A stretch of 64,000 bases of DNA, taken from positions 62,001-126,000 of the forward strand of contig NW_005201202.1 in the NCBI RefSeq assembly GCF_000372725.1. Direction: 5' to 3'. The notes beneath the pieces were generated by a model. The model had not been told where the DNA came from, searched no databases, and worked only from the letters and a program-made list of their open reading frames with translations. How positions within the stretch are numbered: position 1 is the stretch's first letter; each line of letters begins with the position of its first letter. The position numbers and the translations under genes were made by a program. This stretch comes from Emiliania huxleyi CCMP1516. Its lineage: Eukaryota. Shown here one piece after another: positions 33,100 through 56,384 of the stretch.

Positions 33100-34272
33100 C
33101 GAGGCGCGTCTCCAGCTGTAGCTGCCAGAAGTCACCCGGCGGTGTGGCTGGCTGCTGCGAGGGCACTGACGGCTGTGAGGAGCTGCCGCGCCCATGGGAG
33201 GCGGAGCCGAAGTAACCACACGCTGGTTGGTGCTGTTATTTGCGTAGCTAGGATGGCTCGCAGTGTGTGTCACACATGAGTGAGAGACATACGATACGTG
33301 ATAGAGTACTTTGCATGTTCATACTCATTGTTCATACACACACGGACACACGTGTTTCCTACCACCACTCAAACGTTCGTCCGTTCCGCAGTTCTCGTAC
33401 AGCTCTTCGAGCTCCACCCAGCGTGTGTCGGTGAAACCCGAGAGTCGTGTTCATCCTCTCCAAACTCACCGCGCGTGAGGTAGCAAATAGTGTGTCGGCA
33501 GCAGTCAGCTTGTTGCGCCGCTTCTTTCCGATCAGTTGATCGGGGTCGCACAAGCGCATGCGGAGCACCGCCTCGATCTTGTAGCAGAATGTTGGCACGA
33601 CCGCGTCGTCCGCACCGCCGCCTGCAAGCCGTGCCTGGCGCCGATGCTGCCTTTTGCGTTTTGGCACTTGTAGCGAGCACACATGGTGCGGTGCGCGTAC
33701 TTGAGCAGGCGGTGCGCGCCGCAGTTGGCACAGGGGCCCTGGGAGTATGGCGTGCTGCGGCATGTGGACGCGCGTCCAGGTATTTTTCGGGTAAACCTGG
33801 ACTTTCTCGGGTATACCCGGGTTTTACCTGGGTCTTGGGCAGGCACCCCCCTGTCGGTCGAGCAGTCTTGGCTCCCGCGAGGTGTACCCCCCTCTCGGTC
33901 AGAGGCCTGGCCAGGGGCACCTGTAGGGGGGTACCACCACCCCCCTCATGCTCACACGTCTTGCGAGAATGGGGGCGGCTAGGTGCGAGGGGGGGGGTGT
34001 TTGAAGATGACGCGCATATGAGTGTTAGATTTGTTTGGTATTGCTAAAAATCTCTCCCACACGACAGGGTCCCAGGGATTCCCCTCTCGTATAGGACAAG
34101 TTGCACCGGCGGCACGGGGGCAGGCGCGGGCCTCCTACTGGTTGCGCTCTCCTAGTTCTCCTGCTCCTGCCTGACAAGGGACAGCGAAGGCTCGCAGCAC
34201 GGTGGACGGTGCTCCCGCGGGTTTCTTTATCGGGTACCCATCCACGACGGAGCTCGGCTCCACCACGAGCCG

Positions 34273-37073
34273 ATGGCAGCCCGGTCTAGCCGGCCTGTCG
34301 ACTACTATGACGGCAAGGCCGTCTCGCTGGACATCCCGGAGGCGATCCAGCGCCGCCTCTCCGTCCGCTCCTCGCTCACGCCTGATTCGGCGAAGCTTAT
34401 CCTGGTGATGGTCGGCCTTCCCGGCCGCGGCAAGTCCTTCATCGCGCACAAGCTCTCGCGCTTCCTCAACTGGACGGGCTACCAGACCGAGATCTTCAAC
34501 GCCGGCCAGAACCGGCGCGCCAACCACTCGCCCACCAACCACTCGCGCGCCGGCTTCTTTGACCCGAGCGACGCGGAGAGGAAGGCAAAGCGCGAGAGCA
34601 TCGCGATGAGCACGTTTGAGGAGCTGCTCGAGTGGCTGGCGGGCGGCGGCGAGATCGGCATCTTTGATGCCACAAACTCGAACCCGCAGAGGCGCGCCCT
34701 CCTCGTCTCACGCGCGGCCGAGTGGAAGGGTTGGAGGAGCGGAGACGCGAGCCCTGCCGCTGGGGGCGCCGGCGCGGGCGTCGCGGGCGGAGGCGGTGCC
34801 AGGTTCGGCGTGTCGATCGTCTTCATCGAGTCGATCTGCACCGACAAGTCTATCCTCGAGGCCAACATGCTCTCCAAGGTGCGCGCCTCGCCCGACTTTG
34901 CCGGCCTGAGCGAGGAGGAGGCGCTCTCCGACCTGCGGCAGCGGGTCTCGCACTACGAGGCGTCGTACGTGCCGGTGGCGGACGAGGAGGGGGCGTACAT
35001 CAAGCTCTTCGACCTCTCCTCCAAGGTGACGGCCCACCAGGTCTTCGGCCGCATGACGCAGCGCGTGCTTCCCTACATGATGAGCCTGCACATCTCGCTC
35101 CGCCCAATCTTCCTCGCCGCGCTGCCGCCCGGATACGGCGACGCCTCCTCCCGCGGTGCCCCGTGCACGCCACGCGCACGGCACGCGGCTGACGCGTCCA
35201 CGGACACGCGCAGGCGACCTCTCCTGCGAGGAGGGCGGCTGCTCCTCCCCCAACCAGTCCTTCGCGCTCCAGCTCGCCGGCTGGGTCGGCAGGCACGGAA
35301 TTAATTAAATTAAGTAAGTAAGAAGTAAGTAATCACAGCTCGCCGGCTGGGTCGGCAGGCACGGAATTAATTAATTAGCAAGTAAGAAGTAAGTAATCAC
35401 AGCTCGCCGGCTGGGTCGGCAGGCACGTAATTAATTAAATTAAGTAAGTAAGAAGTAAGTAATCACAGCTCGCCGGCTGGGTCGGCAGGCACGTAATTAA
35501 TTAAGTTAGCAAGTCCGTGATGAATGAATCACAGCTCGCGAGCTGGGTCGGCAGGCACGCGCCGTCCTCGCCCCTCCGCCTCCTCTCGTCGACGCAGGCG
35601 AGCGCGGTCGACGCGGCGAGGGTGGTCGCGCGGGACGTGCGCTCACCCGCCACCCGCCCCACACGCCCCACACACCCAAGCCACCGCCGCGCCAAGGCAG
35701 CCGCCACGCTCAAGCCCCTGCACTGCCCCGCTAGCCCTCGCCGCACCCCTCCCGCACACGCCGCACCCCTCCCGCACACTCCCGAGCCGACGCCGCGCTC
35801 GGCACCCGAAGGCCGCACTCCTCTCGCAACCCGCTGCCCCAGATGCGGCGGCGCGGCGTCGGCTGCTCTGTGACAAACGTCTCCTGCCTCAACCCGCTCG
35901 ACCGCGGTATAGTACAGTATAGCATAGCATAGTGTGGTGTAGTATAGTATAGTCTCCTGCCTCAACCCGCTCGACCGCGGCGCGAGACGCGCCCGAGACG
36001 CCGAGATTGCCAGAGATGAGCCGAGAGGAGCCGAGATTGCCAGAGATGAGCCGAGAGGAGCCGAGATTGCCAGAGATGAGCCGAGAGGAGCCGAGATTGC
36101 CAGAGATGAGCCGAGAGGAGCCGAGATTGCCAGAGATGAGCCGAGAGGAGCCGAGATTGCCAGAGATGAGCCGAGAGGAGCCGAGATTGCCAGAGATGAG
36201 CCGAGAGGAGCCGAGATTGCCAGAGTGAGCCGAGAGGAGCCGAGGTGATTAGCCTCCACTTCGTGCGTCCGCCTGCTCGAGCGCGGCGCGAGGGGGCAGC
36301 GCTGAGGCGGCGTCTCACCCTGCCGCTCGCCCACCTCGCCTGCGCGCCGCCTGCCGCAGGCTCCGAGGCGGGCGAGGACCAGTGGGCGACGCAGCGGCTC
36401 GCTTCGATGGGCTTCTCGCAGCGCTACCCGGGAGGCGAGTCCTTCGCCGACCTGGTCCGCCGCCTCGAGGCGCCGAGCAGTAGCCAGCTGCGAGAGCAGA
36501 AGCTAGGAGGTCCGGAGAGGACTCGCCTCACCTGGCCACCGCTACTCCCCTCGCAGCTAGCTTCTGCTCTCGCAGCCAGCTCCTGCTCTCGCAGCCAGCT
36601 CCTCCCCCTCCCCCCCTCCCCCCCTTAGGCGTGCGTCCTCGAGGTCGAGGCCTCGACAGAGCCGGCGACCGACCCCCGGCCGCGGACAGCGGCGCGATGC
36701 GGCCGTCCTCACCTCGCCCTATGGCGGCGCTGGTAGGTGCTCATCGTGGCGCACGCGACGCCGTGCCGCGCTCTGCGCGCATATTTCCTCGGCTTGCCGG
36801 TCGCGGAGTGCATGTGCGCCGCGTCGAGCCGACGCGGCGGAGGCGACCCTCTCCACGGCTGTGACGCGTCCATGACACGTCCATGCCAGGTGCCCGGCGT
36901 CGAGCCGCGCGGCGGAGGCGCTGGCGAACGCGTCGCGCTCCGTGGTCGAGCTGCTGCCGGCGCTGTTTGGCAAGTGGAGTGAGGAGATCCACACGCTCGA
37001 GGAGCGCGGCGAGAACAGCGAGGTGCTCAGTCTCGATGACGCCGTCTTCAGCCTCGAGGGGCAGGTGGGATGA
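34273..37073 (+). CDS. 6-phosphofructo-2-kinase/fructose-2,6-bisphosphatase family protein (multi-exon; phosphatase RHG absent)
   Basis: VMVGLPGRGKS, FNAGQNRR, IFDATNS, FIESICTD, SPDF, YIKLFD, RYPGGESFADLVRRLE, VLIVAH; stop at 37071-37073. Confidence 0.88.
35270..35560 (+). repeat. ~65-bp tandem repeat of an exon-like unit plus AT-rich spacer inside the PFK-2 gene
   Basis: cagctcgccggctgggtcggcaggcacg repeated 5 times (last copy variant), separated by aattaatt/taagtaag tracts. Confidence 0.9.
35995..36245 (+). repeat. 30-bp intronic minisatellite
   Basis: ccgagattgccagagatgagccgagaggag repeated about 8 times. Confidence 0.95.
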
Positions 37074-38262: not shown

Positions 38263-39336
38263 TAGGGTGCCCACAGGACCCAAAAAAAGAAAAGAAAAAG
38301 AAATGGGGCAACCCCGATCGCAGCACTTCGTGTTGGAGAGTCGAGATATTGAGAGTGTGACTAGGAGGGAGGGACGCTGGGGATTCTCAAAGGTATACCC
38401 TTGGAATGGCCGGATCCAGCCTTAAAAGTACGTGTACGAGATCGCGCGCGCTTCACGCACAGCACCGCCTGTTCTCCGCGGTTGTGTGACGACGCGTGCC
38501 GTGTGCTAGCAGAGTTGGGCGCGTCGCGGCGCGACGGCGCCCGCGAGGGAAGGCGCGGGTGCAGCGGCCGCCGGCGGCCGTACCGCCCGCCAGCCGGCGC
38601 AGCAGCGGCCAGCGCAGCGGCCGCCGGCGCAGCAGCCAGAGCAGCCGGTGCGCGCCTCTTGCGAGGCGAGTACTGCCGTCCGGCAGCCTTGAGGCGGCCG
38701 GGCGAGGCGGCCGGGCGGCAGTACTCGTTCGAACTTTGCGAGCCGTGCGCGCGCCGAGGCGCGCGCGGCGCGCGCCCGCCCGGCTGCCAGTAGGGGGCGG
38801 CGCAATATGGCCTATAGTACAGCCCTGAGGAGAAGGAAGAGGCTGGCTGGCAATGCTGTATGCCGCCGAGGGCCATTTTTGGGGTGCTGACCCACGCCCA
38901 GGGGGCTTCAAAAAGGGGTCCCCAAGCCGGGAAAACCCGCCCCCCCCCATCCGAGGCCGGTCGAAGCCCACTTGGGCACAGCCATGAGGAGTCCTCTTGG
39001 TGCTCCTCGCGGCCGTTTGAACCTCGGGCGCGCGCCGATGGGGGGGGGGGGGGGGGTCTTGCTTGCTCCACACCGAGCGCCATCGGTCCGGACCGGCCCG
39101 GCGTGCCCACCGAGGGTCGGCTTGCACAAGGTCTGAGCCGCGGGCGCTCGGCGCCAAGTGCAGTGTCACGCTCGCACTGGAGCGGGTCACAATGGGAAAC
39201 CCTCGTTTCCTATGTACTCGGTCCCCCAACGGAAGAGGCCTCGCTCCTATTGGAACACTCCCAACATCAGACGTTGCCTCGTGCGTCCCTTTTTGAGGCG
39301 GAAAGCTATTTTCTTTTGGGTCCTGTGGGCACCCTA
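38263..39336. mobile_element. Non-autonomous DNA transposon with 23-bp TIRs and a 7-bp TSD
   Basis: TIR tagggtgcccacaggacccaaaa at both ends; TSD gtaatga at 38256-38262 and 39337-39343; solo TIR copy at ~12041. Confidence 0.85.
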
Positions 39337-39621
39337 GTAATGAGTGCGTCTGATAAAAGACAGACCCGCGGAGACCCGCGCCCACATCGGATCGCACTGT
39401 ATCCGTCACCGCCACAGACCCACCGCCACTCGACTACGGCTCTCTCTCTCGAGGAGGACCGAGAGAGAATGCGGAGTGACGGAGCACAAGAGACATCACA
39501 GTAGAGAGGGAGAGGCACAGAACAGGGAGAACCAACGAAACATGGAAACATGGACGACGCGAGGGGAGCAGGCAATCGCTCCCTCGACATTGGTCATTGC
39601 GACGGCAGCGCAACGCGCGCC

Positions 39622-42600
39622 TTAGTAGCAGTCGGACTGCCCCGACCAGCCAGCAAACGGCATCGGCGCAAAGACGGATCCCGTGGCCTCGTCCTCGGTG
39701 AGGACGAGGATGCGGGCCACCGCCTTCATGTGCTCGGTGCTGAGGGGCGTGCCGACGCCAAAGTAGTAGCGCAGCTGGTCCGAGTCGGGCCGGTAGCCCG
39801 GGTAGAGGGCGAGCGAGTTCCAAAAACAGTCCTTGGCGCCCTCGTTGTACATGTTTGCGCGGATGGTCGCCTCGCGGCGCAGCGCGCTCCGTATGCGCTC
39901 GACGCACAGCGGGTCCGTGGACGGCGCCTGCAGGAAGCGGCAGTTCGTGCCGAGCACCTGCGCCGGCTTGAAGCCCGTGACGCGCTCGAAGCCGCCCGAG
40001 AGCCACACCAGCGGCTGGTCTGCAGCCGCCATGTCGACGAGCGTGACCATCAGGTTGAGCGAGTGCAGCGCCGCCACCATCGCAACCTCGAAACCGCGCC
40101 CGTTGAACCAGAGCCACGAGCGGGGCGCCTGCGTGCGTGCGTGCGTGCGCGGCACGCGCGTGAGCGACGCGGCGAAAGGAGGGGCGCGGGGCTGGCGCGC
40201 GCGCCCGGTGGTGGTAGAGCGAGCACAAGTCTGGCCCCCCGATCTTGGGAGGCCGCGCCGCGAGCGGCGCCTGCGGCCAGTTCATGTCATGCAGCAGCGC
40301 CGCGATGTAGGCTTTCGACTCGTAGATGAACCGCGAGAGCGAGAGCAGCAGGCAGCGGTGGCGGCCGTCCGCGCACTGCACGTGCAGCGGCGTCGTCGAC
40401 GGCTGCCCCTGCAGCGCCGCGCGAATGGCGGCGAGCGGGTCGATGGCAGCCCCCTCCGCCTCGGGGTTGGGCGTCGACCAGTGGCCGTCCGCCTCCTCCT
40501 CCGGTTGCACGAGCAGCGAGCGCAGCAGCGGCTCGAGCCTGCCCTTGAGCACCGTCTGGCCTACGGCGCGGCGCAATCAGACGTCACCGCCCCCGCCGCG
40601 GCAGCCTTTCCTCGAGAGCCGCGAGCCGCGCCCTCCACCCCGACCAGCGCCGCGAAGGTGTCCGAGCAGAGCATCACCGGCAGCGCCTCGCCGCCGCCCT
40701 CGTCCACCGCCTCGCACAGCGCCACGCCCTCGCCGCGGCAGTAGGCCAGCTGCGAGAGCACCTTGCGCTGGTAGTGCGCCTGCATCTCCCCCTTGAGCGC
40801 CACCTGCCCGGCGCGGAGGAGGCGCGGCGTGGGGGCAGGGGCGGGGAGGCGCTCTCGCCGCCTGCTTCGGCGCCGCCTCTTCACTCGCCGGCGTCGACAC
40901 TCCAAGTGCCGCGACGACGCGGATAAACTTGTTGTCTCGCCAGCGCCCCATGACCGAGAGCCGGAGCCGCACCGTGGCGGGGCCCGCGTCGGCGGGCGCG
41001 GGCGTGTGCCGCGTGCCCCGCCACTGCTTGCCCTCCCCTTGCGCGAGCAGCTGCATCCGCAGCGCCTCCTCGTCCCAGAAGCACACGTGGTCCACGACCT
41101 TGCCGCCGCGGATCGTGTCGACGGCGATGCCTGCGCAGCGGGAGGCCCGCGGTGAGCGGGCGCGAGGCGGAGGAGGCGCCGCCCATGGCCTCGGCCCCGC
41201 CCGCCTTGCGTGCGGACGGTCTGGTACGTCGGCGCGAGCGCGGCGTACGACCCGTCCGCGAGTCGCGTGTGGTAGTCGCCGCTGTGCGAGCCGGTCCACT
41301 GCCACGTGGTGATGACCTCGTCCGCCTTGCAAGTCTGCTCCAGGATCTCGAAGCGCAAGTCTCCAAAGGCGAGGGCGAGCAGGCCGCGCGAGTCGAGGAA
41401 GGCCTCGAGCCCGTTCGCCTGCGCCGCGCCGCGCGCGTGCTCGGGGAGGGGGCGGGGCGGGGGCGGGCCGAGGCGGAGTGCATCTCGGGCGGATTCCGGG
41501 TGCACCCCGGGGTGCACCTCGTCTGGATCTCGTCTGGATCTCGGGTGGATCTCGGGTGGATCTCGGGTGCGGCTCGCCGACGCGAGCGACTCGGAGCAGG
41601 GGCAGCGCGGGCCCTTGTGCGCGAACGAGGCCATCGGCGTGAAGAGGGAGCGCAGCTCCGCGTCGTCGGCGCGCGGCGCCATGTACGCGTACTCGTAGAG
41701 GCGGCGCGCGGCCGCCTTGCGCCGCTCGCTGCTGGTGACGTCGCGCATCGTCATGGTGATGAGCACCTCGCGCTGCAGCGGCGTCGATGGCGTGCCCGCC
41801 TGCTCCTGCGGCTTGAGGGCGTCGAGCGTGCNNNNNNNNNNNNNNNNNNNNNNNNNNNNNNNNNNNNNNNNNNNNNNNNNNNNNNNNNNNNNNNNNNNNN
41901 NNNNNNNNNNNNNNNNNNNNNNNNNNNNNNNNNNNNNNNNNNNNNNNNNNNNNNNNNNNNNNNNNNNNNNNNNNNNNNNNNNNNNNNNNNNNNNNNNNNN
42001 NNNNNNNNNNNNNNNNNNNNNNNNNNNNNNNNNNNNNNNNNNNNNNNNNNNNNNNNNNNNNNNTCCAAACTACATCACACTTTCTTCTATGAATAATAAA
42101 TGGGAGAAGGAGGTGCTCCAGGGGGGGGTCAGGCGAGGGCAGAGGAGGTGTGTGTGTGTGTGGTCGGTGAGTGTGGCCGAGTCGCTCCTCCGAGGCGAGC
42201 CGGTCGAGGAGCGAGTGGAAGGCGGCGGCGAAGCGCGGCCGGTCGTCTGTCTCGATGAAGGAGTCGTGCGAGAGGAGGTTGAGACCGAGCAGCACGTGCA
42301 TGCTGCCCGACGAGTGGCCGAGCAGCTGCAGCAGCCGGCGCGAGACGGACCAGATCGTGCCGTCGGGCGTGATCTCGAGGGAGAGGAGGTAGTTAGCGCC
42401 TACACTCGCGCCAAAGCTCGCGTCATCTCGGGCGGTGCCGGGCGGGCCCAAGCCGAGGCGGCGCTTGCGCCATCGCTCGGCGAGACGGGAGACAGGGCGA
42501 AGTTAGCGGGAGACCCCCCCCCCTCGGCCGGCGCCAGCCTCGCCGGCTCGCTCGGCGGCCTCCTCTCTCCGGGCGCACGCCACGGCGTGAAGACGTCGCG

Positions 42601-44233
42601 GAAGACGTCGTGCCTGACGAATCAAAGTTCAAGAACGAATCATGAGAAGAAGCAGAAGAAGAAGACACGCCCCTGCAGACGTCGCGCCTCCTCGCCGCCT
42701 CAGGACCGCCCGTCGGCGAGCCGTTGCTCGCTCCGTCCGGCGCGACCGGAGAGCCGTCGCGGTCCCGGGCGACGGAGAGCACGCACGGCGCGGGGATCTG
42801 CTTGGCGAGGAGGGCGTCCCAGCTGAGCCCGTCGAAGAACGGGTGCGCCTTGACCGCCGCGGGACCGCCGGTCGCACCGCCGCCTCCTCCTCCGCCGCCC
42901 GGGTCGGCCGCTCCGGCGGGCTGCGGCGCCGTCGAGCCGAGGCGGGAGGAGGGCTGCTTGGCGAGGAGTCGCGAGACAAGGCTGTCGGCCTCGGGGCTGC
43001 GGGCGGGAGGGAGGGAGGGGCAGGGAGGGAGGGAGGGAGGGAGGGGGTGAGGGAGGGAGGGAGGGAGAGGGGGGAGGGAGAGGGAGAGAGGAGAGAGGAG
43101 AGAGGAGAGAGGAGAGAGGAGAGGGGGAGGGGGAGAGGGGGAGGGGGAGAGGGAGAGGGAGAGGGAGAGGGAGAGGGAGGGGGAGAGGGAGGCGCAGCGG
43201 GCGGGACCTGCAGCTGGGCGGGAGCCGGACCTCCTCGCGGGTGATGCGACGCATCATCACGTGCAGACTCTCGTCGCGGAAGGCGGACTCGCCTGCCCGC
43301 AGAGAGGGAGGGCTTGAGGCGCCGCATGTGTGCCTCGCGGGCTGCTGGTGGGCGGGAGGCGGAGGGCGGGAGGCGGAGGGCGGAGGAGGGCGGAGGAGAG
43401 GTCGCCGGTGAGCATCTCAAAGACGAGGCAGCCGAGGGTCCACCAGTCGACAGAGGAGTCGTACTGGCTGCCCTGCAGCACCTGCTCGCACAGTCGAGCG
43501 CGGGGGGCTCCGGCGTCAACTCACGGGCGGGGCGGGGCGAGGCGGCGTGGGGCGGGGCGGCGGGGCGGCGGGGCGGCGGGGCGTGGCGGCGTGGCGGCGC
43601 CTCCGGCGCGATGTACTCTGGCGTGCCGCAGATGGTGCCGCAGAGGGCGGGGCGGCCACCCTCGCCGCCCGTCTCCTTGGACATGCCAAAGTCTGTCAGC
43701 TTGAGGTGCCCGTCGATGCCAACCATCACGTTCTCCGGCTTGAGGTCGCGGTACACCACGCCCGAGCCGTGGACGTGCTCGAGCGCGAGCACTATCTCTC
43801 CGGCGTACACGCGCGCCCACTCCTCGGGGAAGGAGCCCTGCTGCTCGAGCAGCGTGAACATGTCGCCACCGCCCACGTAGTCCATCACCAGGTAGAGGTG
43901 GTCCACGTCCTGGAACGCGAACTGCAGCGACACCACAAACGGGTGCGGCCGCGACGCCATGTGCTCGAGCACGCGCTTCTCGGAGAGCGCCTGAGCGACG
44001 GACTGCTGGCCCTGCCGCAGCAGCTTCTCTTTAAGCACGCACTTCATCGCGTAGAGCTGCCGGTTCGCTCGCCGCGTCACCATCATCACTCGGCCAAACT
44101 GGCCCTCACCGAGCATGCCGTGGACTTCAAAGCTGTCAAGCGAGATGTCGTCCAGCGCACGTGGAGAGGAGGCCGTTGGACCCGTCGACGAGCCAGCAGG
44201 CGAGGTCGTCCTCACCGGAGGGAGCTCCGACAT
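39622..44233 (-). CDS. Multi-exon AGC-type Ser/Thr kinase - PAS - SnoaL-like - PAS-like - LOV protein (candidate photoreceptor kinase)
   Basis: Kinase motifs LGEGQFG, YAMK, YRDLKPEN, DFG, GTPEYIAPE, DWWTLG, HPFF. PAS closing motif RDVT. SnoaL-like AFGDLRFEI...WQWTGSHSG...GIAVDTIRGGKVVDH. LOV GTNCRFLQ at 39928-39951. The model crosses an N gap. Confidence 0.7.
41832..42063. other. Assembly gap (232 N)
   Basis: Run of n characters. Confidence 1.
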
Positions 44234-44790: not shown

Positions 44791-44892
44791 TGTGCCCCCC
44801 CCAATGAACACACCAGTGAGGGAGGGCGAGACGATCGAGGGGTCCCGTACCATGCGGAATCGACCCTATCCAGTGCTCAAGTGCTCTGTTGT

Positions 44893-45118
44893 GCGAGGCG
44901 TGAACCGCGCCATTCGCTCTCACCTGGCAACCCTGTCGGAACGTCTCGCGCGCGCGTGAACAGGGCAACCACCATAAAGATCTATCTGCAGGGGCAGCTT
45001 TTCTCTTGCAGATTACTACATACCACACAATCCAAAAACAAAATGCGAGGCGTGAACCGCGCCATTCGCTCTCACCTGGCAACCCTGTCTGCACGTCTCG
45101 CGCGCGCGTGAACAGGGC
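44893..45118 (+). repeat. ~73-bp direct repeat, 2 copies
   Basis: gcgaggcgtgaaccgcgccattcgctctcacctggcaaccctgtc...cgtgaacagggc at ~44893-44966 and ~45044-45118. Confidence 0.9.
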
Positions 45119-45484
45119 CCGTTGAGGTGTCCATCTTATGTGCAGGGGGGCTACAACTGTAGCGCGTCGGCAGGATCCCCCAAAACCGTCGTAAACCCCC
45201 CCAAATTGAATTCGACCGCCCCGTCGCGAGCACGCCGCCCTCGCCCCCGCCACCTTCCCCCCCGCCGCCATCCCCACCGCCGCCGTCGCCGCCGCCCCCG
45301 TCACCGCCACCGCCCTCGCCGCCCCCTCCATCGCCCCCGCCGCCGTCGCCCCCTCCGCCTTCCCCGCCTCTCGACCCCGCCTCCTCCATCGTTAGTTAGG
45401 AAGGTGAAGAACAGCCAGGCTCGGACTGGACACCAACGCGGTATGGGTGGACGCTAGTGGCTAGACAGATGATGCCGGAGCCCA

Positions 45485-45583: not shown

Positions 45584-45903
45584 GATGCCGGAGCCCATAA
45601 ACAAATAGAGCAGTCAACCCCTTGGTGGGATTAGGGCAGCAACTCGACGGGCAGACCCCGCCCCGTTCGGAGGGCGTGCACCACACAGCACACAGACTTA
45701 TCTAGGCACTGCACGGCTCCTCGGGATTTCTGGAGCGTCCTGAAATTTCTTTTGCGCCTTGCCGGGAAATGGCGTAGCTGTGAGCGCTGTCAGAGCGGTG
45801 TTTCGACACCGATATCGTTCGAGGTTTTGCGCGATCGGGCCCCACCACTGTCCACGGCCACTCATATCTCTGGGCAGAGCGCGATCGCGAACACCCACCT
45901 CCC

Positions 45904-48155
45904 ATGCTGACGACGCTGCAGGCCCTCTCTTTGGCACCGGGCACTCCTCGCGAGAGGCATGCACAACCAGCGCGAGGCATGCTGCCACCGGTGGCATCGG
46001 TGCAGCAGGCTGCTGTCGCTGGTGCCAGCGCACGCGTGAGTCAGCCGGACCGCTATGCGAGACGCTGGGAGCTGCTGCTCCGGCTCGAGTACAGGGAAGC
46101 CGCAAACGAGCTGCGGCTGCGGCGTGCAAAGTGGCCTCGGTCCCGGCTCGAGGCGAGCGGATCGGCCGTCTTTGACGCGACGGCGAGCCCAGACACGGAC
46201 CTGTTCGGCGAGAAGGTTGTTCGCGTGGGCAAGCCTGGCGAGACGAGGCTTTCGGACCTCTTCTCGCGCGGCGACATCCTCGTCCTGCGCCCGGCCGACC
46301 GCTCGGCACCGTGGGGCGGCGCCGGGGAGGGCTTCCCTCCCAGAGAGTGCTGCGTCGTCGACAGCGGCAAAGACTGGATCACGCTTGGCGTGGGCCAGAG
46401 CTGGCCCAACGGGCTCTGGGAGGCGCGCCGGCGGCCGGACTCGTTTCGCGTTGCGCTTGAGCGAGCAGCACCGCAGGCGCCGCTCAAGGCGCAGCAGGCG
46501 GCGCTGCACCGGGCTGCCAAGGGAGAGGCGGGGCTCGCCGCAGCGCTGCTCGCGGCGGAGGAGGCGGCGGTGCCGGAGGCGGCGGCGGAGCCTCCGCCGC
46601 GCCTGTGCGACTCCTCTGCAGCGGGCTCCTCCGTGACTCCGCCGCGCCCCGTGGACTCATCTGCTGCGGACCCATCGAGGGTCGACGCCGCCGTCCGCGC
46701 CGCCCTGCAGCAGGCGGTCGACGTCGCCGGCGCTGCTTTCGCGCCAAACGAGTCGCAGCAGGAGGCGGTCGCTTGGGCGCTCGGCCGCCGGCTCTCGCTC
46801 ATCCGCGGACCGCCCGGCACCGGCAAGACGAGGACCGCGGCGCTCCTCGTCCTGGCCGCGCTCAGGATCCCCTCGCCGCATGCCGCTGCCGGAGGCGGGG
46901 AGGCTGGCGGGGAGGCCTCGTCGCCGTCCCCGCCGCCCCGCGCGAGAGTGCTCGCCGTCACGCACAGCAACTCGGCCGCAGACGTGCTCCTCGCGGCTCT
47001 GCTCAGGCTGGGCGTGCCCGCCGTGCGCGCGGGTCGCCCGGCCGCGGTCAGCCCGGCTGTGCGGCGACGGACGGCGGTCGCGCTGGCGCAGCAGCACCCG
47101 GAGGTGGTGGCACTGAGGGCGCGCGCACGCAACGCGTCGCTTCCCGCGCACGAGCGGTCTGCCGCCGCCTCCGAGCTGCGTGGCGTCGGCGAAGCGGTGA
47201 GCCAGCTGATCCTCCGCACCGCCCCGGTCGTCGTCTCGAGTTGCATCAGCGCGCACCAGCTGGCCGAGGAGGGGGCGCCTTTCCCCCTCGTCGTCCTCGA
47301 CGAGGGGTCGCAGGCCCGTCGGGAGGGACGGTCGCCGCTCGACTGCCCGAGGCCACCCGAGGTCACACCGAGACCACACACTAGGCGACGGAGCCGGCCC
47401 TCGTGTGCGCTCTTGCGGCGGCGGCGGCGGAGCAGCTCGTCATCGTCGGCGACACGCGCCAGCTCCCACCGACCGTCGCTTCGGGCTCGCGGCGGCTGCG
47501 CCAGGCGCTCGGCGAGTCGCCGATGGCGCGGCTGGAGGCGCTCGGGGTGGCGCAGAGGACGCTCACGGTTCAGTACCGCATGCCGCCCGTCCTGCTCGAG
47601 CACCCGTCGAAGTATTTTTACGACTCGCTCGTGTCCTGCGCCGAGAGCCGTCGGCGGGGAGGGCGGCCGCCGAGGGGCTTCGCGTGGCCGGATGGCCAGC
47701 CTCTCTGCTTCGTCCACTGCGGCGGCGACCTCGAGGAGAGTCACGCTGGCGGCGGCAAGAGCAACCCGGTCGAGGCGGCGCTGGCCGCCCGGCTGGTCGC
47801 GTCCGTCCTCGAGGCCGGCGACGTGTCGCCCTCGAACGTTGCCGTCCTCACTCCCTACTCGAGCCAGGTGGACCTCGTCCGGAGGGAGGGGACCGCCTGC
47901 CGCGTCAGCACAGTGGACTCGTTCCAGGGCCAGGAGACGGACCTCGTCGTGTTCTCCGCCACCCGCTCCAACGGCGTCGGTGATCTGGGCTTCTGTCGCG
48001 ACCCGCGGCGGCTGTGCGTCGCCATCACGCGGGCGAGGCGTGGGCTGGTACTGATTGGCGATGCCCGGACGCTCCGCAGCTCACACCATTGGGCGGCCCT
48101 GATCGAGTCGTGCAGAGCGAGAGGGCTCTTTGTTGACAGCCTCTCACTCGCTTGA
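45904..48155 (+). CDS. SF1B helicase, UPF1/IGHMBP2 (DNA2/NAM7)-like
   Basis: NESQQEAV, LIRGPPGTGKT, HSNSAAD, DEGSQ|ATEP (intron 47314-47384), VGDTRQLPP, LTVQYRM, VLTPYSSQV, TVDSFQGQE, RLCVAITRARRGL. Confidence 0.9.
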
Positions 48156-51040: not shown

Positions 51041-52701
51041 TCAGCTGACGCGGTGGCGCTCGCCCGCGGTGCCGTCACGGTGCGCGAGGTCGACGAGCCG
51101 CTGGTGCAGCTTGGCGGACGCCTCCTTGCGCAACGGCGGCTGGCCGGCGCACCTGAAACAGAAAGCGCGACGCGTTCCAACGGGCGGGTGTGAGCAAGAC
51201 GTGGCGCCGGCTGAGAAGGCAAAGTGAGGCACGCGGGAGCTGCGGCGGTGGCGGTGGGGGAGCCGGAGCGCGGCAGGCGAGGTAGCCGCGTCTCGGACGT
51301 GTCTCGGAGGCGTCTCGGACGTGTCTCGGACGTGTCTCGGAGGCGTGTCGGAGGTGTCTCGGAGGCGTGTCGGAGGCGTGTCGCACCGGACGAGCTTGAA
51401 CTTGAAGACGCCGTGCTGGCGCGCGCCGACCTCGTACTTGTAGTCGGTCACCTGCTCACAGCTTCAGGTGTGAAGAGACGCCGTCCACAGCGCCGGCCTG
51501 TGCGTGCACTCCGTCACCGCGTAGAGGCCGTCGTAGATGAAGAGGCGCTGGGAGTACGACCGCTCGGGCGGCACCTGGTGGGTGGGGGTCAGGGGAACTT
51601 CTCCACGCACACAAGGCTGGGGCGAGGGCCAAGCAACCCTCCCGACTCCACGTCCGAAGGCAAGACCGGAGCTGGCACGGCGTTGAAAGTGCAAGGCCCG
51701 GTGCGCGTGGGCGAGCGGTGTGTGTGGGTGGGTTGGTGGCAGCGAACCTCTCCCACGTACCGCAGCAGCCGGACCGGCGTGCCCCTCTCGAGGTTGTTCT
51801 TGAGCGCGAGGTTGCCTATGGGCACACTCGCTCCGTGGGTCAAGGAGGAGGAGCTGGCTGATGGCCCCCTTCGCTCGAGCGCGACGTCTGCCCTTCTCGA
51901 GCTTCTGCGCGCCCGTCTGCCGCCGGCTGCTCAGCAGGTCGTTCCCGCCCGAGCCGGTATACCACAGCTCGTCGCCGTCGTCCTCGTCGTCCTCGTACCC
52001 GCCCGACGAGACGACCGCCGTCGCGACCGCCTCCTCGCCGTCCTTGGCCGGCCGGTAGTCGATGCCCGACAGCCACTTGCGGTGCATCCCGCACACCTGA
52101 GGGGTGTGTCAGGCGGGGCGTGTCAGCGGGAGGTGTCAGCGGGGTGTGTCAGTGTCAGTAGACGTGTAGCGACGGCGGCGCGAGCAGAGTGGAGGCGGAT
52201 CGAAGGGGAGGTGGTGGGATATCTCGGAAGCGTCTCGGAAGTGTCTCGGCACCTGCATCTCGGCGCGGTTGTGGAACTCGGTCCCGGGAGGCATGCCTGC
52301 GTTGCGAAGCAACAGAAGTCGTCAAACGGCGTTGAATGCGGCTGCAATACAGTCGAATGCAGCCGGCGTGTCATTTGGAGTGCTCGCTGGGACCGCCGGC
52401 AGGTGTGCTCTAGGCTGGCATGCCGGGCAGGCTGCCGACGTGCCGCCCCTCGCAGCACTTGAGCCCCAAGGCGCCGACTTCGCTCATCGCCTTGAGGTCG
52501 GCGCGGCCTCCGCCCGTCGCCTGCTTGATGCGCACAAAGCACTCCTTGTAGAGGGCCCTCGCCTAATTAAAGTGAGGTGCGGCTGAAGACATCTCCGCAC
52601 GAAGGGGTGGCAAGGGCAAGACGGCGACCTCGCGACTCCACGTCCAAAAAGACACGAGCTGGCGCCGGCAGTGCAAGGCCCAGTCCAAGTGGGTCCATTT
52701 T

Positions 52702-52732
<31 letters not shown>

Positions 52733-53361
52733 CGTGCGTGCGTGCGTGCGTGCGTGTGAGCGCGCGCGCGCGGCGCGCCTCTTGCAGCCGGGCCACCTCC
52801 TCCTCCTCCGAGGGGGGCGGCGGCGGGAGCACGGCCGGCGCGCCCGGGTCCACCAGCCGCCTGGCGCGAGGAGCGCGCCGCGCCGCCGGCACGTCGAGCG
52901 CCGTGCCGGGCGGCAGCAGACTGGCCGCGCCGAGGCTCTCCTACACAGGAAGGTTCCGGGAAGGCTCAGAGAGCGTTTCCGAAGTAGAGGAGCAGGCTGC
53001 GCCCGAGGCTCTCCTCGGCATAGCTCTTGCGCGGCCCGCCCTCGAGCCGCGAAGAGCGGCGGCTCGCCTCGGGCAGCGGCTCGCGCGGCTTGCGCGGCTT
53101 TGGGGGCGCCCGTGCCGGCTTGAGGCGCGTCGAGGCCAGGTCGAGACCGAGCGCCGCGAGCTGCTCGTGGTTCTTGGCGATGTTGGCGAGGCGCTCTTTC
53201 TCGTACTCGGACAGCGCTGGCGCGCCGGCCGGGGCGGGCGGCGCGGGAGCGGTGGGCGCGCCCTGCGCAGGGGCTGCCGGCTCGGCTTGGCGCGCCCGCT
53301 TTTGCCCGGTCGTGGGTGATGCAGCGCGCTTCGAGCGTGTTGAGCGAGGGGAGAGCTGCAT
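51041..53361 (-). CDS. SRA/YDG-domain (methylcytosine-reader) protein, multi-exon
   Basis: GMHRKWLSGID, AVVSSGGYEDDEDDGDELWYTGSGG, QKLEKG|NLALK..GTPVRLLR, FIYDGLY, VFKFKLVR|CAGQPPL; N-terminal LSEYEKERLANIAKN motif. Confidence 0.85.
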
Positions 53362-53676
53362 GTCGATGATCTCGATGTAAAGCCACAGACCACAGCACTC
53401 CCGCCCGTTTCTTTCCCGCTTGCGGAAATAAATAAATAAAATGGGTCGATTCCGCATCCTCCCTCTCTTGCGTTCTTCCACGTAATTAATTGAATTCCTA
53501 ATTAATCGCTCAGAGTCACTTTTGGACTTTGGCTGTTAGGGTTAGTGCTGTTGGCACTTGCAACTTGGCTCTTGGGGCGGCGGGACAAAGAACCCTGCAC
53601 AAAGATCGCACGGGCGGGGGCCTGTTCCTTTTTACCCTATACCCATCTCACAGTAGAGGTGTCCGTTTTTATTTGT

Positions 53677-55870
53677 TTACCCGGGGCGGGACGTATCTCG
53701 TATGATCTCCCCGTCCCCCCTGGCCGGCTGGTGCGCACAGAGAGTCTCTCGCGCCTCCTCGAGGGAGGGAGGCTCGGCGCCAGAGCCGGCCTCGAGTTCC
53801 GTCTCGGACGCGGTGCGCGCCGAGTCGTCCTCCTCCTCATCGTCCGCCTCAAAGTACGCCGCGTCGAGGGCGGAGCGGAGGCGAGGCACGAGGGGCGGCG
53901 GCAGCCTGCCGGCCGCGAGGCTCGCGGCATCCATGGCGTCGGCCTTTGGGAAGGCGCCCGCGCCGAAAAAGGGGTGCTGGAGCAGCGCGGACGGCGAGGG
54001 GCGCGCCGTTGGGTCGCGGCTCAGCAGCGCCATCACGAGGTCCTTTGCAGCCGCGCAAAAGAGGAAGGGCGAGGCCGGGAAGTGAGGCGCACCTGCAAGC
54101 CGCGCGAGGGCGGCGTCTCGGGCGCGCGGGAGCGGCGGCGGAGTCTGCGGCGACGGGGGAGGGAGGCGGACCGCGCAGCGCTGCGGCGTAGGTGGCCGTG
54201 GGGTCGCCGCCGCTGCCGAAAGGGAGAGCGTCGAGGAGGAGCTCGTAGCTGCGCGTGACCGGGGGTTGGGGGTCGGCAGACAGAGCGGGGCAGGGTGGTC
54301 CTGCTCGAGCACTCACAGGGTTGCGCCGAGTGCCCACAAGTCGACGCGCGGCCCGTGGCCCTCCCGCAGGAACATTTCGGGCGCCAGGTAGTCGGGCGTG
54401 CCGAGCAGAGAGAAGGACCGCCCCTCGCCCTCGCCCTCGCCCTGGCCCTGGCCCTGGCCCTGGCCCTGGCCCTCGCCCTCGCCCTGGCCCTGGCCCTGGC
54501 CCTGGCCCTCGCCCTCGCCCTCGCCCTCGCCCTCGCCCTCGCCCTCGCCCGCTCCGCGGCCAAAGGAGCGCGCGAAGCCGAAGTCGACCAGCGTGCAGTG
54601 GCCGGCGGAGGAGAGGCAGAGGTTGTCCGGCTTGAGGTCGCGGTGGCCGACGCGGCGCTCGTGCAAGTGCGCGAGGCCGAGGGCGGCCTGGCCGACGTAG
54701 AAGCGAGCCGCGCGCTGGCCGAGCGGGCCGGTGCGCCGGAGGAGGGCCCCGAGCGAGCCGCCGGGCAAGTAGTCGAGCAGCAGGGCGCAGAGCCGCTCGC
54801 CGCAGAGCCAGCCGCGCGACCGAACGACGAAGGGCGCGCCGCGCAGGGCGGAGGAGGCGAGGAGCTTCGCTTCGCGCGCCGCCCGCTCCGCAGAGCTCGC
54901 GCACCGGCGGCCGCCGAAGCGCGTCCCGTCGGCGGCGCGCCGCGTCAGCTTGAGGACCACAGCCTCGCCGGCGCGCGAGCAGAGCAGCACGCTCGAGCGA
55001 CTGTCCGCCAGCAGCGGCCGCTCGAGCCGAAGCTCCGACAGGACCAGCGACGGAGGCTCGTCGGCGATGCCTCCGCCGCCTTCAGGTTTGGCCTCGCCTC
55101 CTCCCGTGCCGCCTCCGTTGCCCTCACCGCCGCCCTCCTCGCCGCCCTCCCCACCGGCCGCGGCGCGCCTCCCCTCCCAGCCGGGGACGATGGAGCGGAA
55201 GGTGAGGGAGATACGGTGTCCGTCCGACGGCCGGAGCGGCAGCTGGTGCTCGAGCAGCTCCTGCACGGAGGGCCCGAGTAGGCTCACGGAAGGGTCTGGC
55301 GGGAGCGGACGAGGGCTCGGGCCGCGCCTGCGTGCCGCCGCTCATCAGCACCACGTCGCCCGGCCGCACCTCCACCTCGCACAGCACCTCGCGCTCGCCC
55401 TCCGCCGCCGCCAAGGCAGCGCCGGGCCGGCGGCGGATGCGGAAGAGGCGAGGCGCGCCGAGCGAGAGCGAGGCAACGGCACGAAGCTGGCCGTGCGCAC
55501 GCACCTCGTCGTGGTGCCACGGGATATGGCCCTCGCCGTCCGGGTAATTGTTGGCGAGGCAGGCGGTGAGTGCTCCTGGCGCCAGACCGCACGCCTCCTC
55601 GACCAAGGCTCTCAGCCGCAGCAGCGCTGGAGTCCACGGACGCGGACTCAGAGCGAGGCCGCAAAACGCGAAGACGCAGTCGGCATCGCCAAAGTAGGCC
55701 GTCTTCCGATCGTGCAGCCCAAACTCGTCCGTCTCCGTCGTCCACGGCAGCTCAGACGCCAGCGTGGAGAAGGCGGCCGCTGCGGCATCGCCGCGCACCG
55801 CACCGCGCAGGAGCGTGCAGCGCGATCCTAACGGTAGAGTCGCAAGGTCTTCCGTCGCGAGGCCCTCCAT
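53677..55870 (-). CDS. AlkB (ALKBH2/3-like 2OG-Fe(II) dioxygenase) fused to an AGC-like Ser/Thr kinase
   Basis: AlkB motifs RKTAYFG, CLANNYPDG..HIPWHHDE, ASLSLGAPRLF, MSGGTQ|..EHQLP, RISLTFR. The same ORF continues into VVLK, HRDLKPDN, DFG, GTPDYLAPE, DLWALG, and a later exon gives HPFF. Confidence 0.8.
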
Positions 55871-56384
55871 CGAAGGCGAACCGACGCCAGAGACTCTCCA
55901 GTCTCAGCCCGTCCTGTGAAAAGGTGAGGCGTGGTCTGTCTCGCCAGCCAGCCCGCGCCCCGCCGAGGAAAAAAAGAATTTTCCACCCGGCGGTCGCACG
56001 ACACGATTCACGCGACAGGCGAGGCGCTGGCGACAGCTTCCTCAGAAGCCGTCGCCCGCACGCAAAAAAGAATTAAAACTGCCAAGTGCGCCGAAAAAAG
56101 GATTAAACGCCCCGACACTAGGCTCCCTCCCTAAATAAATAAATAAATAAAACGGGCACGCCAAACGAGGGGTGGGAGAAGGACAGTCTTTTCCTTTGTG
56201 TTGTGTGTTTTATTTCTTTCTTTACTAGGCACGGGACTGGCGCGCACTGGACAACTCGCAAGAAAGCAAGAACCTCAGTTGTGAATGGTTCGCGGAGTGA
56301 ATTCTTCTTCAAACCATATCACAACTACGTACGTTCACCAACCAAGAGCAATCGGCATCAAAGCAGCTAAACATACCGCGCGCA

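Follow-up and report, generated by a model that had tools for sequence, protein, structure and literature searches.

A kinase-first LOV protein of Emiliania huxleyi and its haptophyte family, a putative blue-light-regulated kinase

Do the kinase, PAS-like, SnoaL-like and LOV sequences that follow each other on one contig of Emiliania huxleyi CCMP1516 form a single gene, and could its product be a light receptor? The question arose from a sequence-only reading of 64,000 nucleotides of contig NW_005201202.1 (assembly GCF_000372725.1, positions 62,001 to 126,000, in the following the window), which had proposed a new photoreceptor of the order kinase-PAS-SnoaL-PAS-LOV, a 'reverse phototropin'. 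The locus is one spliced gene for a protein of 1,203 amino acids (aa) that belongs to a haptophyte-wide family and comprises an AGC kinase, a predicted PAS domain, a SnoaL-like domain, a PAS domain and a LOV domain. The protein is a variant of the theme of LOV-regulated kinases with a putative function and not a phototropin. That it acts as a blue-light-regulated Ser/Thr kinase is considered reasonably probable.

One spliced gene

All five modules were confirmed on the minus strand as one spliced gene with one reading frame, approximately at the coordinates first proposed (Table 1). The DNA at the gene is GC-rich (67 % G+C) and contains introns. Contigs of four runs from four studies (X1, X3, X7 and X13, presumably RNA) were mapped on window positions 38800-43000. 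Seven intron joints and the joint across the assembly gap were identical in all four runs, and the contigs were free of introns. X1, X3 and X7 presented one contig each of 3,835-3,872 nt, which joins kinase exon 4 to the LOV and runs past the stop codon, X13 presented two contigs. Upstream of exon 4, these contigs carried 724-819 letters, compared to 794 predicted for kinase exons 1-3. The three introns within the kinase were predicted (two GC..AG, one GT..AG) and confirmed by the database protein P0010, an MMETSP entry of exactly 1,203 aa with four differences to the exon model in 1,070 compared positions and no stop. Two uninterrupted proteins of 1,166 aa, P0015 and P0020, originated from other assemblies. 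All seven introns seen in transcripts are readable as GC..AG; of the ten fully visible introns, nine read GC..AG and one GT..AG. This richness in GC..AG introns may explain a faulty public gene model.

The assembly gap of 232 N was bridged in all four runs by 395 transcript bases between positions 42186 and 41831. Gap lengths of 232 and 393-397 were tried: 395 alone gave a frame without internal stop, 393 and 396 failed. The true gap is larger than 232 nt because 395 exon bases must fit. Together with the exons, these bases yielded the frame of 1,203 aa, again without internal stop. The idea of separate transcripts for the kinase and the LOV part failed, single contigs of X1, X3 and X7 joining both, and neither a stop nor a misjoin was present in the gap. 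Thus the linkage of five co-oriented modules, assumed in the sequence-only reading, was borne out by spliced contigs and P0010.

An artefact would place a kinase gene beside a SnoaL-LOV gene, their link being a product of the gap or of a chimeric assembly. The public models invite this view: the NCBI model EMIHUDRAFT_452932 (P0002, 468 aa), 99 % identical to the LOV exon, includes neither the kinase nor the SnoaL exon, and the kinase is also missing from P0001 and P0022, two calls of 604 aa. A contig spanning two genes is by itself no proof of one transcript. An artefact is nevertheless hardly credible, being already contradicted by the in-frame 395-nt bridge in four studies. Full-length open reading frames came from two kinds of sources, distant relatives showed the same order, and P0001 lies on contigs of up to 3,980 nt, a length that could accommodate the entire transcript. 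The omission of kinase and SnoaL exon from the public E. huxleyi model is likely the reason why the family was overlooked.

Two further observations concern the locus. At window positions 41690-41691 all four runs differed from the window, changing Tyr666 to Arg in three runs and to Cys in one, which reflects an allele or an error in the window assembly. Long antisense open reading frames over the gene were set aside, as they are expected at this G+C content.

Table 1. Features of the gene in the window; aa positions refer to the 1,203-aa protein, pLDDT is the predicted local distance difference test score of the AlphaFold2 model
Feature	Position	Strand	Remarks
Whole gene	39620..44233	-	12 visible exons and exon sequence within the N gap; 1,203-aa protein
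Exons 1-6	44233-43601, 43481-43406, 43292-43208, 42996-42688, 42613-42471, 42399-42186	-	followed by the N gap
Exons 7-12	41831-41578, 41418-41205, 41130-40877, 40803-40632, 40560-40205, 40128-39620	-	stop TAA 39622-39620
AGC-type Ser/Thr kinase, aa 35-335	42788..44131	-	exons 1-4; Pfam, PDB, fold, motifs
Kinase-tail motif FRDVFTPW, aa 372-379	42580..42603	-	family pattern L/F-x-x-x-F-T-x-W/F
PAS-like domain A, first half, aa 416-486 (predicted)	42186..42399	-	pLDDT ~85-95; 14 columns at least 80 % conserved in 14 relatives
Assembly gap, 232 N	41832..42063		395 nt in transcripts, coding for the Ser/Pro-rich insert (aa 487-598) and for the beginning of the second PAS-A half
PAS-like domain A, end, with RDVT aa 648-651 (predicted)	41731..41831	-	D649, V650, T651 at least 80 % conserved in 19 relatives; strands in model
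SnoaL-like (NTF2-fold) domain, aa 653-805	41039..41730	-	exons 7-9
Predicted beta-hairpin between SnoaL and PAS-B, aa 829-852	40898..40969	-	pLDDT ~50-60, low confidence; alignment
Leading helix and degenerate PAS/LOV-like domain B, aa 860-1010	40280..40803	-	no cysteine motif; HHalign, model
RSWLWF motif and long helix before LOV, aa 1038-1058	40060..40122	-	model
LOV core, aa 1060-1165	39739..40056	-	PDB LOV matches with alignments
LOV motif GTNCRFLQ, Cys1098	39951-39928	-	LOV core
Gly1161 in place of the conserved Gln	39753-39751	-	LOV core
Predicted helix after LOV, aa 1166-1179, J-alpha position	39697..39738	-	model

The domains of the protein

All Pfam matches on the full protein exceeded the curated cut-off. 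An AlphaFold2 model based on an alignment of 46 rows had a mean pLDDT of 71.8 and a predicted template modelling score (pTM) of 0.58, the single-sequence fold a pLDDT of 34.8. The AlphaFold2 model presented a confident predicted fold for every domain; both fold searches with the whole model returned kinase matches.

An AGC kinase with intact catalytic motifs had been recognized in the raw sequence, and this description held. The Pkinase match covered aa 35-286 with an E value of 2e-65, and the motifs GEGQFG (42), AMK, the alphaC Glu, YRDLKPEN (161), DFG (181), Thr200-ICGTPE and APE were all aligned to Akt2. The elements of an active AGC kinase are all present: Gly loop, beta3 Lys, alphaC Glu, Asp-x-Lys-x-x-Asn, DFG, APE and the activation-loop Thr. 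The kinase kept 85 of 98 family-conserved columns; this and the other conservation counts are inflated by near-duplicate rows (L008/P0037, L002/P0044, L003/L004). In sequence, the best solved relatives were Akt and PKA; the fold searches returned PKC, PKG and Akt with Z up to 28.6. The segment from DFG to APE comprises 31 residues, and the position of Thr200 is occupied by Thr or Ser in eight of nine relatives. About 40 residues before PAS-A, the kinase tail carries a motif which we take to resemble the hydrophobic motif that activates AGC kinases. Its Phe and its Thr were each kept in 8 of the 11 relatives with a letter there.

The C-terminal LOV domain was matched by PAS_9 (aa 1071-1130, E 1e-8) and by 127 solved sequences (best E 9e-19). 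The motif GTNCRFLQ, noted in the sequence-only reading, is present with its cysteine; the conserved signalling glutamine is replaced by Gly1161, which aligns with this residue (AsLOV2 Q513) in 4r38 and 4gcz. The window's copy keeps 23 of 26 family-conserved columns and the flavin contacts Asn1130, Asn1139, Arg1099, Gln1102 and Arg1115. For the phosphate and ribityl contacts, the AsLOV2 labels are presumably R451, Q454 and R467. The flavin-contacting Asn pair of AsLOV2 is N482 and N492 (PMC9098866). Among 27 relatives, the cysteine was kept in 26, the signalling position was Gln in 19 and Gly in two. The Gly-bearing relatives grouped with the window's copy (support 98/94); as the four Gly-bearing rows form one clade, the change from Gln to Gly was inherited and is not a recent decay. 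Dietler et al. reported the signalling Gln as dispensable: all 19 replacements were tested in YF1, and the unresponsive ones named are Pro, His, Trp, Tyr and Arg, Gly not being among them (PMC9098866). The ratio of nonsynonymous to synonymous substitution rates (dN/dS) of the LOV domain was 0.06-0.18 for three closely related pairs of environmental sequences, which belong to another subfamily and gave small counts; other domains had values of 0.04-0.57.

The degenerate PAS domain postulated before the LOV domain, PAS-B, was recovered by profile comparison. HHalign related it to the family LOV with a probability of 91 % (E 1e-6) and to outside LOV domains with 80 % (E 1e-5), compared to E values of 0.06-0.79 for unrelated-domain controls. 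In P0027 and L002, the best match of this stretch was PAS_4. From these profiles, PAS-B is probably a degenerate LOV domain.

The SnoaL-like domain stood as proposed, with a match to PF07366 at aa 702-802 (E 8e-12, 45.6 bits at a cut-off of 28.4) and a helix-plus-sheet model of NTF2 type. The family profile obtained 11 PDB matches, all SnoaL-like, among them 3f9s, 8r20, AclR, SnoL and IdmH. It is the most conserved non-kinase module of the family, with a mean pairwise identity of 0.49 versus 0.43 for LOV. The profile matches to a hydroxylase, AclR, SnoL and IdmH could indicate an active enzyme, in which case the protein would be a tailoring enzyme under the control of light that also carries a kinase; polyketide-cyclase-like domains with LOV have been raised in PMC13737086. 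We judge this very improbable, since the matches are weak (best E 2e-7) and mostly to uncharacterised proteins, the domain is enclosed by a PAS domain on each side, and the six nameable flanking frames with Pfam matches are non-biosynthetic, except one 2OG-Fe(II) oxygenase 11 kb away.

For the first PAS domain, read as ending in RDVT, predicted fold and sequence comparison diverged. The model of PAS-A has a PAS-like order of strands and helices and the terminal D-V-T; a Pfam match was absent in five of five members and a PDB sequence match was not found, and HHalign linked PAS-A to PAS-B weakly (probability 8 %, E 0.004). PAS-A therefore stays a prediction. By its model, it would be a PAS-like domain split by an insert that was hidden in the gap. 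The insert comprises 112 aa of low complexity without stop, is disordered in the model and consists to 60 % of Ser, Thr, Pro, Gly and Arg.

Relatives, known receptors and neighbouring genes

A HMMER search over 1.84 billion representatives, with the best 150 matches listed, revealed among the matches listed relatives at 30-47 % identity. A word-index search for full-length relatives returned three unrelated PAS proteins alone. Twenty-eight relatives were scanned: SnoaL was present in 13, and of these six also had PAS_9 above cut-off and two a kinase match. P0032 and P0036 begin with the kinase tail. A metagenome scan yielded 26 loci, with kinase, SnoaL and LOV in order on six (L001, L003, L004, L005, L008, L013). 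Four of the six carried one open frame at 32-37 % identity, L003 with a partial kinase, L004, L005 and L008. L020 ended before LOV, L006 had no kinase upstream, and 17 others were fragments or started downstream of the kinase. No relative was confirmed among 49 candidates that motif scans picked from prokaryote genomes and 17 from viral contigs; such scans detect close motifs alone.

Named members of the family come from clade C.4 of Coesel et al. 2021, of which 20 rows were covered, from Chrysochromulina, Imantonia, Isochrysis, Phaeocystis, Emiliania, Gephyrocapsa, Scyphosphaera and Pleurochrysis (PMC8017926). Seven of these rows, from Isochrysis, Phaeocystis and Gephyrocapsa, start with a kinase and are all labelled 'LOV' (Dataset S3C), and E. 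huxleyi has at least one further paralogue in this collection. Judged from these sequences, kinase and cysteine LOV are kept together in fixed order across several haptophyte orders. A Gephyrocapsa oceanica entry of 1,225 aa is nearly identical over the approximately 400 residues shown, with Pkinase at 36-286, an NTF2-like match at 728-824 and further matches (Datasets S3C, S6A). The entries are labelled just 'LOV'; in the accessible portion the architecture is not discussed, and the four main-text mentions of 'kinase' concern other proteins. Dataset S6A also lists LOV proteins of the dinoflagellates Alexandrium (68-339) and Azadinium (79-377) with an early kinase. In 2026, the combination 'SnoaL (PF07366) + LOV' was named for one Phaeocystis metatranscriptome sequence with LOV at 501-661 (PMC13737086), very probably a member of this kinase-first family. 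It was treated there in one sentence as uncharacterised, without kinase or PAS domains in the accessible portion, where all 12 Pkinase rows of the table are chlorophyte.

With the phototropins of green plants and green algae (LOV1-LOV2-AGC kinase) the protein shares the combination, within a single chain, of an AGC-group kinase and a LOV that has the GxNCRFLQ cysteine, and a tandem of PAS/LOV-like domains, here PAS-B and LOV. In contrast to phototropins, with two N-terminal LOV domains and a C-terminal kinase, the kinase comes first and the LOV last; there is one cysteine LOV, PAS-B is without the motif, and SnoaL-like and PAS-like domains lie between. The best kinase matches are Akt, PKA and PKC, and the 31 residues from DFG to APE compare to a loop of 57 residues in phot1 (PMC8086140). 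The likeness of the kinase to Akt, PKA and PKC and the short activation segment indicate that the protein is not an inverted phototropin by descent, thus 'reverse phototropin' is an analogy only.

Aureochromes (bZIP-LOV) also have the effector first and the LOV last with helices on both sides, and are among the closest solved LOV domains; they are stramenopile proteins, whereas the effector here is a kinase, with no bZIP Pfam match at E up to 1. Metazoan PASK is a Ser/Thr kinase with several PAS domains, one of them split by an unstructured linker between PAS fold and PAC motif, as predicted for PAS-A; unlike the present protein, it is without LOV or SnoaL, and the PAS domains precede the kinase (PMC11962487). 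A PASK-like assembly switch was rejected as a general mechanism, for the insert is long in some members only and short in L003, L004, L006 and L008. The haptophyte 'LOV-pKinase' type of Coesel et al. combines LOV and kinase in the same algae, with an E. huxleyi entry (kinase 764-1023), but the kinase is late in the chain, no NTF2-like match was seen for these entries, and the type is a separate protein set.

The sequence-only reading had not recognized the architecture from described LOV receptors. In the literature searched no description of kinase-PAS-SnoaL-PAS-LOV was found, although the catalogue of LOV architectures of Glantz et al. 2016 may list it, and the receptor table of a 2026 review on light in algae holds no such receptor (PMC13436692). 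The novelty is limited, as a haptophyte-wide family with paralogues was found whose kinase, NTF2-like and PAS matches had been tabulated in 2021 and whose SnoaL and LOV had been named together in 2026. The sequences were already public and partly auto-annotated; the whole architecture is apparently undescribed. In a preprint, a 'LOV-NTF2' and a 'LOV-UFD1' are named, the latter from E. huxleyi and with Gln-to-Gly (bioRxiv 10.1101/2025.06.20.660589); either may correspond to this gene or family. No UFD1 match was present in 142 flanking frames of at least 110 aa.

Upstream of the gene, two 75-nt copies (44892-44966 and 45044-45118) are 97 % alike and 152 nt apart. They are followed by a 15-nt tandem repeat at 45220-45383, which on the minus strand reads as GGGDG/GGGEG repeats in a frame without Pfam match. 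The divergent neighbour at 45784-48152 (+) has the Upf1-like helicase domains AAA_11 and AAA_12. A 6-phosphofructo-2-kinase domain is located at 34156-35301 (+). The minus-strand region 51467-55903 contains a SAD/SRA domain (51467-52108), a second protein kinase (54316-55341) and the 2OG-Fe(II) oxygenase (55127-55903).

Putative control of the kinase by light

As a blue-light-regulated kinase, the protein would bind flavin in its C-terminal LOV domain and form a cysteine adduct in blue light. The adduct change would travel via the helices flanking LOV into a helix-linked block of PAS-B, SnoaL and PAS-A, and this block would set kinase activity via the C-terminal tail of the kinase with its conserved F-T-x-W/F motif. 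The SnoaL-like domain would either provide a surface for oligomerisation or take up a small molecule in its pocket as a second input. Gly in the place of Gln would mean a weaker or slower-recovering response, not none. The continuous contigs, the uninterrupted 1,166-aa proteins, the single open frames of metagenome loci, the kinase-first rows of clade C.4, the confident domain folds, the retention of LOV Cys and Gln, the low LOV dN/dS, the inheritance of Gly within one clade and the YF1 replacements argue for this reading. In addition, phototropins were not recovered from haptophytes (PMC4532919), and haploid cells of E. huxleyi are phototactic and express LOV transcripts (PMC2784329). The LOV expressed sequence tags of E. 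huxleyi (von Dassow 2009, PMC2784329) could not be mapped to this gene.

Several observations weigh against regulation by light. Flavin binding, photocycle, light-dependent activity and the coupling of LOV and kinase are deduced from sequence and model. Only 11 of 27 relatives have retained the Asn that corresponds to N492, the tail motif has a pLDDT below 50, and the window's SnoaL copy keeps 33 of 46 family-conserved columns with the longest branch (1.19) in the SnoaL tree. Kinase and LOV are separated by about 720 residues including the disordered insert, while in phototropin, the characterised LOV kinase, LOV lies directly before the kinase (PMC8086140). This long distance would also suit a light-sensing LOV that governs dimerisation, location or partner binding, the kinase being switched by AGC phosphorylation at Thr200 and the tail. 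The activation-loop Thr or Ser is conventional in the relatives, and aureochrome LOV domains, among the closest PDB matches, act by dimerising (PMC8184817). Such a division of labour is rather improbable: kinase tail, PAS-A and the remaining modules keep a fixed order in the family, and the pTM suggests a large ordered block.

Other adverse observations point to the chief rival, a metabolite- or redox-gated kinase with the SnoaL pocket or PAS-A as main input and LOV as an accessory that was lost or degraded in some copies. One of the 26 loci, L007:11-3619 (+), carries on one contig kinase, PAS-A, SnoaL and the C-terminal tail of the family, with PAS-B and LOV skipped. Degenerate LOV motifs occur in P0043, in Pleurochrysis (GAHRSFWFR) and in a Gephyrocapsa row with GTPMYNEGA in the motif cell. 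A clear diel signal was absent for clade C.4: none of six haptophyte rows fell under the threshold of P<0.001, the best being Prymnesiales with P=0.0018, and Isochrysidales had P=1 at low counts (PMC8017926). The high conservation of SnoaL, its conserved polar residues (Arg714, Glu730, Gln731, His748, Asp779, Asp788, His789, Asp794) and the polyketide-tailoring proteins among its PDB relatives fit this rival. Control by metabolites or redox state is still unlikely, as the LOV cysteine is almost always kept at low LOV dN/dS, and SnoaL of the window is more diverged than LOV in terms of conserved columns. In L007, moreover, a low-complexity extension of about 350 residues precedes the kinase, and the post-SnoaL hairpin joins the C-terminal tail; this member may represent a deletion, an isoform or a misassembly.

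Regulation of the kinase by blue light is thus the preferred reading. Its extension to two inputs is tentative: light at the C-terminal LOV and a small molecule in the SnoaL pocket might act together on the Akt/PKA-like kinase via its tail, haptophytes having built a blue-light kinase independently with a SnoaL pocket borrowed from bacterial polyketide enzymes. If true, eukaryotes would have a second LOV-gated AGC kinase, unrelated to the first, and this gate would be a candidate for the missing receptor behind the light responses of bloom-forming Emiliania and Phaeocystis. Control of a kinase from its C-terminal end would be an allosteric arrangement new to LOV signalling and might be of use as a part in optogenetics, and the natural Gln-to-Gly clade provides a eukaryotic case for signalling without the glutamine. 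Haptophytes are major primary producers of the ocean, their light receptors are poorly known and they are reported to be without phototropins; a conserved, expressed, multi-copy family of LOV kinases presents a concrete candidate receptor.

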